DNA of 62,745 nucleotides, the filler included, from Collodictyon triciliatum (Eukaryota): NCBI GenBank assembly GCA_043381765.1. It is 10 parts of 10 records of this genome, joined end to end, with 100 filler letters (N's around TTAATTAATTAA, not from the genome) between each part and the next. Parts side by side here need not be neighbours in the genome. Positions count along the whole stretch, not along the records: positions 14,899 to 22,245 come from JBHJMP010003943.1; 9 more parts are not named here. One strand, 5' to 3'. Under the pieces are notes generated by a model. The model made no database searches. It saw only the letters and a program-made list of their open reading frames with translations, and had not been told where the DNA came from. Positions 15,042-18,000 of the stretch are shown here, piece by piece (within the stretch, counting starts at the first letter, position 1; every line of letters starts with the position of its first letter). The position numbers were made by a program, and so were the translations under genes.

Positions 15042-18000
15042 TTGAGCAGCCTGCCGAAATCTATTGGCTTGTTGACAAACCTTCAAGCAATAAGCCTTGG
15101 TGATAATCAGGTACATATAAATGAACCACATACACAAGTAAATTAATTACTCCCTTCTTAAAACTATAATTTAACACAGCTTTCATCTATACCGGATGAA
15201 TTCTGTAATCTTCGCCTGTTACATTATTTGACAGCTTGGAGAAATCAGGTTTAGTCACTCACCGTACAGTGCGAGTGAAACATTATATTTAAATGAGTGT
15301 AAAAGTAGATTTTTTTTTAAAAAAAAGTAAGCCTGGGATGTGACTCTTTTATCAATTTATTTCAATTTATTTTAGTTTATTTTAGTGTATTTTAGTGTAT
15401 TTTAGTGTATTTTAGTGTATTTTAGTGTATTTTAGTGTATTTTAGTTTATTCGGCACGATTTGCTGCTTCGCTATTTAAGAATACATTCTATTTTAATAT
15501 GACTGTAAATATTCTTTCATTATTAACTTGGTTAATAGATTGGATATCTTCCTGATGAATTGGAGAACTTAACCTCTATAACATATATTGATATTTATGA
15601 AAATAAGGTAAGTATTCGTCTTGTGAATGAATCGTATCTAGGTTATAAAAGAATACACATGGGCCCTTTCATTTCTATTTTATATATTCACCTCTTAGAT
15701 TTAGCCATTAAGCCTAGGTTTATTTTACATTTTGCATGTATTTGATAATATATGCATTTATAAAGGTTTCTGCATTGCCATTGAAACTAAACATGCCAGG
15801 TTTAGTCAGATTGTACTTAGGGTCGAACGAGGCAATACTAAAAAGCTATTTAAATTCATCAAGTCCATCATATCTCCTTTTTCTCCTCCCTCGATGCCTG
15901 ATTATTGTCCAACCCCCTGAAAATTTAGTTCTTTCCCCTCATTACATGCTATTCTCTCCAGAAACTGGAAAGGAAATTTTATATTATCATACATTTGACT
16001 GTTCTAGATTACTTCAATTCCAGAGGAAATAGGACTTATGTCTTCTCTCACAAGGCTCGATATATCTCATAATATGGTTATCTTCCTTTTTCAATATTTT
16101 CTTCCAAACAAAACATCATAACATCAAAAAGGCAAAACAAATATAGATGATATCTTGTCTCATGCAATTTATTTATTTATTTTTATTGTAGATTTCAAAA
16201 CTTCCATACACAATGAAGGGTCTTAAAGGCATCCAGAAAGTTACCTTGGAAGGAAATCCGATACCTCAAATAGATATCACTGTTTGGTCTAGCTATGAAG
16301 GCGAATCGTACTCACTAAATCTATCAAAGAAATCCTATATAAGACAGCTCGGGTTTGAACTTCTTGCCATCCCAATGTTGCGGGTATTGGACATATCAGA
16401 TAATGGGGTATTTATCTATCACATAACGTTTTGGTGTAGCTATTCAAATGTTCACCTCTACGATTTATAATATCTCCTTTTCGCATAAACCAACCAAAAT
16501 TTAATTGCAAGATTGTTTGTTTATAAAAGTAAGAAATATGATACAATACTTTTAAAAACACAAACGCATTTTATTGTGGTTTAGTTAGAAAAGGTTCCAT
16601 CTTCTGTCTGCTTGCTATTTGAACTCCAAAAATTGAACATATCGCAAAATAAGGTTTAGTCGGGGATACCAATCGTTCTAAACCTCTAAATTTTTGACTT
16701 ATCGGCTACCAAAATATTATTTTTTTAAAAAAAATTACATATCATTCAAAATCTATCTTGTGTACTGAGCGCCATTGCATTTATTCATGATGGTATTAAA
16801 GCTATATTTCTCTTTCCGTAGATTACATCGCTTCCTGCAGGTATGGTTCACTTAACGAAATTGAAATCTTTAATATTGGACCACGAAAGAGTGGTATTTC
16901 CACATGCTGATGCACTCCGGGTTGGTGTGGCAAACTACCTTGGGTTTTTGGAAAAAATCGATCAAAAGCAAAATCAAGCCCCTGTTGGTAGGCTTATTTG
17001 TATCAGTGACGACTTTTCAACAAAGAGAATCATCTTAGACCATCTTCTACAGAAGAAGATAGATGAAGGTAGCCGACAGAACCCTGAATTGACCGTTCCG
17101 TTCGTGCTGCATGACCAAGATTTCAAATTTAAAGCAAAATCAAAGACATGTTCACTTTCTGTCATGATGATATCTGATGACTTGCCCTGTGGGTCGGCTT
17201 ATCCATACATTTTCTCCAAGGACGCTATCTATGTCTTATTTTTCGATTCGGGTGATATTAGACAAGATAAAAAGCTTCAAACGTGGCTTCCCACAATAGC
17301 AACTGCTACCCCAGGTGCACGTGTTTTGATAGTCTATATAAACTCATCAAATATCGAAAATCTTGTTGAATTCGAGGGCAGTGGCTTTACAACAAAACTG
17401 CGTCGTACTATTGGCGGTTTGAAGGATTTGATTGTGGTCGAATCAGTTGTTGTCATACAAGCTGATAGACCGGATGACGTCCAACACCTTCGAGATGCAG
17501 TCACCAAATCAGCACTAACTTTACCACAGATGGTAAAGCCCCTGAGCGCATATGCTATACTCTCGAGGTATGTCATAAAAGATATACTTCGGGAAAGAAA
17601 GTACCCTGTGATTACATACTCAGAATTTCAGCTGATCCAGAGCCACATGCTTCACTATGAACCCACACCTTTGATGGATTATTTAATCGAAAGTAGTCTA
17701 GTCCTATGGAAATTAGTGAACCCATTCGACAAAGTGCCTCTTTTAGAATCAGATTATTTCATAAGAATACTTAACCATGTTTTTCAACAAAAAAGTGGCA
17801 ATCATTTCCATGGAATTGAGAACAAGGAAGAGTACTTGGGCAAGTTAAAAAATAAAGACGACAGGACACCTCGCATATGGATTAATACCCTCTGCCGATT
17901 CAAGATGTGTGAGGTTGACCCTTTCACTGACAAGCTCGTTTTCCCTCATATGCTATCCCAAGGATTGCCTCCAAATCACATTTGGAGTTACAAGATTCAA

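Follow-up and report, generated by a model that had tools for sequence, protein, structure and literature searches.

The Roc-like domain encoded by a Roco gene of Collodictyon triciliatum has lost both P-loop glycines, the Mg-binding Ser/Thr, the DxxG motif, the guanine-specificity motif and G5. The gene lies on one contig (positions 14899 to 22245, JBHJMP010003943.1) of a 62,745-nucleotide (nt) stretch of genomic DNA (GenBank assembly GCA_043381765.1), referred to here as the window. With a probability of roughly 0.62, the gene product is a pseudoGTPase Roco, predicted to lack nucleotide binding and retained as a nucleotide-independent scaffold or adaptor. The identification of the encoded product as a Roco protein, consisting of leucine-rich repeats (LRRs), a Roc-like domain, COR, a Cys/His-rich region and a PH domain, is supported. 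The translation of the main exon (16822 to 19251) is designated P0001, and residue numbers refer to it. A word-indexed search of 5.8 billion proteins returned a single relative, P0002 (1,338 residues), which shares 36% identity with P0001 over all 811 residues and is a complete open reading frame (ORF) in the EukProt transcriptome of Diphylleia rotans and hence expressed. A search for longer homologues found none.

Nucleotide-binding motifs of the Roc-like domain

A preliminary description of this DNA, made from the sequence alone, had proposed that all nucleotide-binding motifs of a Roc domain were lost. The strings it had named were located in P0001: RLICISDDFSTKRII at residues 57 to 71 (nt 16990 to 17034) for G1, VMMISDD at residues 114 to 120 (nt 17161 to 17181) for G3 and VYINSS at residues 171 to 176 (nt 17332 to 17349) for G4, together with the two flanking Roc hallmarks, IFSKDAIYVLFFD at residues 130 to 142 and WLPTIATATPGARVLIV at residues 155 to 171. 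The motifs were registered by an ungapped HMMER alignment to the Roc domain of LRRK2, the Parkinson's disease protein, and by two MAFFT alignments, one with 17 and one with 38 relatives, all of which place the same P0001 residues under GxxxxGK[ST], DxxG and [NT]xxD. The proposal holds for the G1, G3, G4 and G5 signatures, all of which are gone, and goes too far for one residue, K68, which still stands at the position of the P-loop lysine. The main exon and the features of its Roc-like part are as follows.

16822 to 19251, + strand: main exon of 810 codons, with AG acceptor and GT donor, encoding the last LRR, the pseudo-Roc domain, COR-A-like and COR-B-like regions, the Cys/His-rich region and the first half of the PH domain.
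16984 to 17517, + strand: pseudo-Roc domain, residues 55 to 232, in the order b1-a1-b2-b3-a2-b4-a3-b5-a4-b6-a5 (structure model and Foldseek).
17005 to 17028, + strand: G1 (P-loop) position, SDDFSTKR in place of GxxxxGK[ST], with both Gly and the Ser/Thr lost and the Lys kept (alignments).
17167 to 17178, + strand: G3 position, MISD in place of the DxxG of relatives (alignments).
17338 to 17349, + strand: G4 position, INSS in place of the T/N-x-x-D of relatives (alignments).
17455 to 17469, + strand: G5 position, IQADR in place of the VSNxT of family members, with ADR also present in P0002 (alignments).

Canonical members of the subfamily carry GExxxGKT/S at G1, WDFGGQ at G3, VGTxxD at G4 and VSNxT at G5. 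At the same positions P0001 reads SDDFSTKR, MMISDD, VYINSS and IQADR, and P0002 reads GDESSGCS, WILEDD, VYVFTS and VRADR. Neither protein contains a Walker A motif or GK[ST] anywhere, or a DxxG within its Roc-like part. Among the 64 relatives with a Roc match, G1 was intact in 56 of the 59 in which it was covered, G3 in 54 and G4, strictly defined, in 45, while all three were missing in P0001 and P0002. P0011 was likewise flagged in this set, with its G1 position uncovered; another alignment shows its G1 to be GEKGIGKS.

The losses in P0001 and P0002 are partly shared. The two proteins have in common the derived residues DD at G3, VY at G4 and ADR at G5, and the loss is therefore older than their split. 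At G1, P0002 has a Cys in the column of the P-loop lysine and keeps both glycines; as P0001 keeps the Lys and P0002 the glycines, G1 has eroded differently in the two lineages and neither remnant is conserved. The G-domain fold is kept while the G motifs are absent (structure model, Foldseek and motif scan), as in class i pseudoGTPases. We infer from these replacements that the pseudo-Roc domain can probably no longer bind or hydrolyze GTP (guanosine triphosphate) and would belong to this class.

Fold, relatives and constraint

A structure model of P0001, built with AlphaFold2 (AF2) on a 39-sequence alignment, reached a mean predicted local distance difference test (pLDDT) score of 78.8 and a predicted template modeling (pTM) score of 0.79. 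It shows G-domain topology over residues 55 to 232; the part after that is helical at first and rich in beta strands further on. In Foldseek searches the model matched LRRK1 (8e05, E = 3.2e-18), the LRR-Roc-COR protein of Chlorobium tepidum (CtRoco; 6hlu, E = 9.2e-17), RocCOR (3dpu, E = 2.5e-16), RocCOR-deltaC of M. barkeri (4wnr, E = 2.2e-12, TMt 0.70) and an isolated COR domain (3dpt, E = 1.9e-9). The G domain alone matched the ROC domain of LRRK2 (7thy, TMt 0.73) and Rab1b (TMt 0.72). The small-GTPase fold expected in the preliminary description thus appears as a Ras-like topology in the model, and its statement that COR is retained agrees with the matches to 3dpt, 3dpu and 4wnr. In the model, the pseudo-Roc domain keeps its Ras-like fold and its packing against COR. 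In sequence comparisons with the PDB, P0001 as a single sequence gave no match at E ≤ 1, and a profile of P0001 and P0002 brought only the LRRK2 Roc domain near significance (E = 0.013, ungapped from G1 to G4). The protein language-model look-alikes of P0001 were all Roco clusters (0.94 to 0.97).

Downstream of the Roc-like domain, the main exon encodes the following regions.

17536 to 18351, + strand: COR-like region, residues 239 to 510, helical COR-A and then beta-rich COR-B (AF2 secondary structure and Foldseek).
18352 to 19056, + strand: post-COR region, in which C519, P520, C522, P597, C617 and H624 are invariant and C735 nearly so among 21 aligned sequences.
19057 to 19251, + strand: first half of the PH domain (strands b1 to b4/5), the last 65 residues of the exon (Pfam PH in relatives).

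Pfam COR-A was found in 29 and COR-B in 16 of the 39 aligned proteins, with P0001 matched by neither; the profile aligns positions 229 to 665 to P0016 and P0019, which carry both Pfam COR-A and COR-B. A two-copy complex prediction for COR-B (residues 381 to 520) scored 0.00, with the fold of the partner uncertain and the alignment unused. The post-COR cluster (C519, C522, C617, H624, C735 and C738; nt 18376 to 18693 and 19024 to 19035) suggests that residues 511 to 745 hold a candidate zinc site. It is kept in all 21 aligned Roco relatives, some of them from unrelated taxa (e.g., a cluster with an Actinia tenebrosa member). A model of the C-terminal 305 residues had a pLDDT of 64.3; these residues had no Foldseek match in the PDB at E ≤ 1e-3, the weak PH-like matches covering 45 to 55 columns, and an atlas search with residues 511 to 745 gave only leads below 0.9. 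Pfam PH was detected in 9 of the 39 aligned proteins (e.g., P0003, E = 5.9e-15), P0001 itself being unmatched.

To place the protein among its relatives, the HMMER profile of P0001 and P0002 was compared with 1.84 billion representative proteins, of which 65 matched at E ≤ 1e-3 and 14 at E ≤ 1e-10. The top matches (P0003 to P0012 and P0015) align along all ~800 residues (E = 3e-51 to 3e-30); their Pfam domains are LRRs, a Roc domain (E = 1e-12 to 1e-19), COR-A at weak significance and, at the C terminus, PH. The identity of P0001 to all relatives except P0002 is 14 to 21% overall. The 13 further clade members that were looked up were all D. rotans transcripts. In a maximum-likelihood tree of 24 rows and 487 columns, P0001 and P0002 are sisters (100/100) inside a 15-row subfamily clade (100/99). 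Their common stem measures 1.95 substitutions per site and their tips 0.91 and 0.60, and the tool warned of long branches meeting near the pair. G1, G3 and G4 are all intact in 10 rows of the clade and not in P0001, P0002, P0008, P0011 and P0015; as 5 of the 15 members are without the full motif set, erosion of Roc motifs has been repeated in this expanded family. The three other affected members are D. rotans paralogues: P0008 has GHPRTGRS and DMNL, P0011 has ELSN and TREK with G1 intact, and P0015 has GEAGSGKR and HCGG.

P0001 and P0002 agree at 37.5% of residues in the pseudo-Roc domain, compared with 38.7% in COR-A, 34.9% in COR-B, 35.6% in the C-terminal region and 30.3% in the PH half. 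The ratio of Roc to COR-A identity is ~1, which lies inside the spread of nine other measured pairs. Retention of the pseudo-Roc domain under constraint, rather than its decay, is suggested by this equal conservation, by the losses shared with the expressed P0002 and by the 810 open codons of the exon. The branch lengths and identities also fit a phase of rapid change at the time the switch was lost and, thereafter, purifying selection of the ordinary kind along the entire protein.

State of the gene copy and rival readings

The preliminary description had the reading frame intact. For the main exon this is borne out: the 810 codons contain no in-frame stop, the other five frames contain 35 to 53 each, and 2,000 shuffled versions of the exon had 49 on average and never fewer than 26. 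For the gene as a whole it is not, as 5' exons are missing and a TAA (19337 to 19339) lies in the next exon. The exons on either side of the main exon, and the linker that precedes them, are as follows.

14799 to 14898, no strand: artificial linker (44 N, TTAATTAATTAA, 44 N), marking the start of the Roco-bearing contig.
15042 to 15110, + strand: LRR exon, 69 nt, phase 0, LSSLPKSIGLLTNLQAISLGDNQ (bordered by cag and gtacat; tblastn with P0002).
15180 to 15248, + strand: LRR exon, 69 nt, phase 0, LSSIPDEFCNLRLLHYLTAWRNQ (LRR profile, E = 3.7e-12).
15539 to 15607, + strand: LRR exon, 69 nt, phase 0, IGYLPDELENLTSITYIDIYENK (LRR profile, E = 1.5e-10).
15766 to 15831, + strand: possible LRR exon, 66 nt, uncertain, with a GC donor instead of GT (splice-site check).
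16008 to 16076, + strand: LRR exon, 69 nt, phase 0, ITSIPEEIGLMSSLTRLDISHNM (LRR profile, E = 1e-11; tblastn with P0002).
16192 to 16407, + strand: exon of 216 nt, LRR and an irregular insert (colinear with P0002 residues 386 to 455).
16585 to 16653, + strand: LRR exon, 69 nt, phase 0, LEKVPSSVCLLFELQKLNISQNK (LRR profile, E = 2.3e-11).
19316 to 19426, + strand: next exon, phase 0, reading DYEKKTI, the TAA and then IRVYIKVTEWSTEDYYYGFMVEQKRSLLQ (colinear with PH strands b6 and b7 and the C-terminal helix in P0002 and P0005).

The upstream part thus consists of six 69-nt LRR units, the sixth being the start of the main exon, with one exon of 216 nt and the doubtful one of 66 nt, all in phase 0. 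The 69-nt exons and the 216-nt exon retain AG/GT borders. An arrangement of one LRR per 69-nt phase 0 exon (15042 to 16653) lets exons be shuffled or skipped with the frame preserved. The first recognizable exon begins 143 nt into the piece from 14899 to 22245, and a profile of the six 69-nt exons found no LRR exon upstream of 15042 in the window (best E = 2.2). The start codon and the N-terminal LRR exons are absent from the window because of the contig boundary; going by P0002, the complete gene is predicted to have ~20 LRRs. Linkers of the same form (N44-TTAATTAATTAA-N44) occur at 7349 to 7448, 14799 to 14898, 22246 to 22345, 29690 to 29789, 37133 to 37232, 44576 to 44675, 52017 to 52116, 59453 to 59552 and 60560 to 60659, and the pieces between them fall slowly in length (7,350, 7,347, 7,344, 7,343, 7,343, 7,341 and 7,336 nt). 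An ORF of 1,704 codons is cut at 52017 and has no continuation after 52116. In all likelihood the pieces are individual contigs that were ordered by size and strung together through a stop-codon linker; therefore, a gene neighborhood across any linker is not real.

At the 3' side, the donor after codon 810 (GAA/GTATGA) joins the acceptor at 19315/19316 in phase 0. The P0002 sequence colinear with this exon is LYEFSLYSKKIALNFKLTEYHSWLAWTRFF; since the exon is colinear with the second half of the PH domain of P0002 and P0005, the TAA falls inside that domain. The frame after it stays open for 68 further codons, up to a microsatellite. The TAA may reflect a wrong base in the draft assembly, a polymorphic site or a mutation that inactivated the gene recently, and the copy in the window is therefore possibly broken or misassembled. 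A variant genetic code was rejected as its explanation, as the 810-codon exon has no in-frame TAA, TAG or TGA. Alternative splicing around it was also rejected: there is no GT between 19316 and the TAA, and later acceptors drop the colinear b6 strand.

The motifs were lost once, on the long stem before P0001 and P0002 diverged, and the dead domain has since been kept as well as the rest of the protein. The Roc-COR unit would then no longer switch. It may instead be a rigid core on which the LRR binding surface and the C-terminal modules for membrane or partner binding stay in a single arrangement; the protein would thus act as a nucleotide-independent adaptor, perhaps beside the subfamily's numerous canonical paralogues. 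Tentatively, and at somewhat less than even odds, this may be the first natural Roc-COR that works without nucleotide, a "frozen" core long kept and expressed in the Diphyllatea lineage that may pair with canonical paralogues.

Several observations weigh against a retained, nucleotide-free scaffold. K68 occupies the P-loop lysine column, and a residual phosphate contact is possible. The full loss of motifs is carried by two sequences only. The alignment behind the AF2 model consists mostly of canonical Rocos, which the modeled G fold partly reflects. The Pfam Roc profile (PF08477), which matches 37 of the 39 aligned proteins at E ≤ 0.01, gives P0001 12.7 bits (E = 0.15) and P0002 23.6 bits (E = 6.3e-5), both below the gathering score of 27. 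The in-frame TAA within the PH domain and the absence of 5' exons from the contig mean that this copy is possibly nonfunctional.

The last of these points leads to an alternative that we regard as unlikely, namely, that in this genome the gene died recently and is a pseudogene, or is only a fragment, its degenerate Roc motifs reflecting general decay and not a retained pseudoenzyme. Besides the TAA interrupting the stretch colinear with strands b6 and b7 and the C-terminal helix of P0002 and P0005, and the start codon and N-terminal LRR exons missing from the contig, it draws on the one LRR exon (15766 to 15831) that would require a GC donor and on the many putative pseudogenes reported in PMC11378527 for the expanded ROCO families of brown algae. 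However, 810 stop-free codons stand where 26 to 49 stops would be expected, and the six 69-nt LRR exons and the 216-nt exon keep their AG/GT borders and phase 0. The motif replacements also recur in an expressed, complete, orthologue-like transcript (P0002), and the pseudo-Roc domain is conserved no less than the other domains. The absent 5' end is accounted for by the contig boundary, and the 68 open codons after the TAA fit a change that is very recent or a miscalled base in the draft assembly.

There are two further alternatives. In one, which seems distinctly improbable, the domain still binds nucleotide through a noncanonical pocket, as a locked or atypical G domain that binds without cycling. 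The alignment of K68 with the P-loop lysine, the GxxxxG frame retained in P0002 (GDESSGCS) and the confident prediction of the fold and of the alpha1 helix after the loop are all in its favor, but the remnants differ between the two proteins (the Lys in P0001, the glycines in P0002) and neither is conserved. Moreover, the P0001 loop has two acidic residues, an Arg replaces the Mg-binding Ser/Thr, and neither P0001 nor P0002 has DxxG, the T/N-x-x-D guanine motif or G5. In the other, to which we assign little probability, the inactive Roco forms COR-B-mediated pairs with catalytically active paralogues and controls their activity in the manner of a pseudokinase. Potential partners are plentiful, there being many canonical D. 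rotans paralogues in the subfamily (10 of the 15 clade rows have G1, G3 and G4 intact); COR-B is described as the Roco dimerization element in PMC6337361, and the COR-B-like region of P0001 is retained and modeled with high confidence. Against such pairing, the COR-B region shows little identity to that of canonical paralogues (in the canonical pairs that were measured it is 18.7 to 34.7% identical), and P0001 is only 14 to 21% identical overall to relatives other than P0002. The scaffold or adaptor role remains the preferred reading of the gene.

Known systems and the remainder of the window

The nearest known counterparts of P0001 are the LRR-Roc-COR-PH paralogues of D. rotans (EukProt EP00002; P0003 to P0007, P0009, P0010 and P0012), which have the same architecture and are colinear with it over ~800 residues (E = 3e-51 to 8.5e-24). 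They share with P0001 the invariant CPxC...C-x6-H cluster and belong to the same clade (100/99), but they have canonical G1, G3 and G4 motifs and Pfam Roc matches of E = 1e-12 to 1e-19, which P0001 and P0002 lack. Group 1 Roco proteins, which consist of LRR-Roc-COR only (human MFHAS1/MASL1 and the Roco of C. tepidum), have LRR, Roc fold and COR in the same order as P0001; the language model places MFHAS1 clusters among its top look-alikes, and the CtRoco structures 6hlu and 3dpu stand high among the Foldseek matches. These proteins bind GTP (for MASL1, as stated in PMC6337361), whereas P0001 is without the binding motifs and extends beyond LRR-Roc-COR with its Cys/His-rich region and PH domain. 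The Roc-COR units of LRRK1 and LRRK2 (8e05 and 7thy) are the best structural matches to the model; P0001 is without the kinase, WD40, ARM and ANK domains of these proteins, and their Roc motifs GNTGSGKT, WDFAG and GTHLD are replaced in it.

Class i pseudoGTPases such as the AAGAB psGD and the pG1 and pG2 domains of p190RhoGAP resemble the pseudo-Roc domain in having a G fold without G motifs, used as a protein interaction module. They differ in belonging to G-domain lineages unrelated to Roc, and for P0001 the lack of binding is a prediction. The ROCO genes of brown algae, as described in PMC11378527, encode one LRR per 72-bp exon with symmetric phases, compared with 69 nt and phase 0 here, and likewise form an expanded family with degenerate members. 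They belong to another supergroup, have LRR-ROC-COR only and differ from the gene here in exon phase and length.

Roco proteins are described as GTPases in the passages seen of PMC6337361, PMC6320773 and PMC4104024, and no nucleotide-dead member appears in those passages. In the open-access text searched, no Roc domain appeared among pseudoGTPases and no paper named Roco together with pseudoGTPases or with Diphylleia; none of the 15 papers listed, of 176 that matched, spoke of a degenerate Roc, a missing P-loop or a pseudoenzyme. The extent to which Roc-COR function relies on GTP binding and hydrolysis, rather than on the scaffold itself, is still debated for LRRK2 and its relatives (PMC6337361 and PMC6320773). 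If P0001 is what we propose, the Roc-COR architecture would have a structural or signaling role separable from the GTPase cycle. A conserved nucleotide-dead Roc-COR would be a natural separation-of-function variant, whose structure would reveal the "frozen" conformation, and it would add Roc to the G-domain lineages that have yielded pseudoGTPases. The gene also documents, in a protist group that branched off early, an LRR-Roc-COR-Cys/His-PH subfamily that had not been described and whose motifs have eroded repeatedly. This significance is limited by an obscure host, by the two sequences with full loss and by an incomplete copy in the window.

The only true neighbor of the Roco gene is a gene of several exons for a UBE2S-like ubiquitin-conjugating enzyme (~20420 to 21731, + strand). 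Its GC content is about 0.50, compared with 0.41 for the adjoining Roco gene, and its conserved core (38% of the query) is 82% identical to a D. rotans transcript, the tail being unalignable. A second Roco gene was considered at 24207 to 24521 (match to P0006, E = 7e-4) and rejected as a chance match, as there is no coherent ORF and the site lies on another contig. An Rfam scan of the window found no RNA genes, and a tRNA scan likewise found none.

Other contigs of the window carry exons of a proton-dependent oligopeptide transporter (25404 to 27841, + strand; POT/PTR2-like motif GTGTIKPCITTFVGDQF) and a GC-rich ORF (41522 to 42847, + strand) that encodes a zinc finger of the GATA type (CGHC...CNAC) and acidic and basic stretches of low complexity. 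The 1,704-codon frame at 46954 to 52016 (+ strand), cut at the contig end, encodes ~25 WD40 repeats and then long arrays of Cys-rich CxxC...GxY repeats. Long microsatellites of the types (ATA)n, (TTA)n and (TTTG)n flank genes at 13820 to 13920, 19545 to 19745 and 14700 to 14798; the one at 19545 sits in an open frame downstream of the last recognizable exon of the Roco gene.

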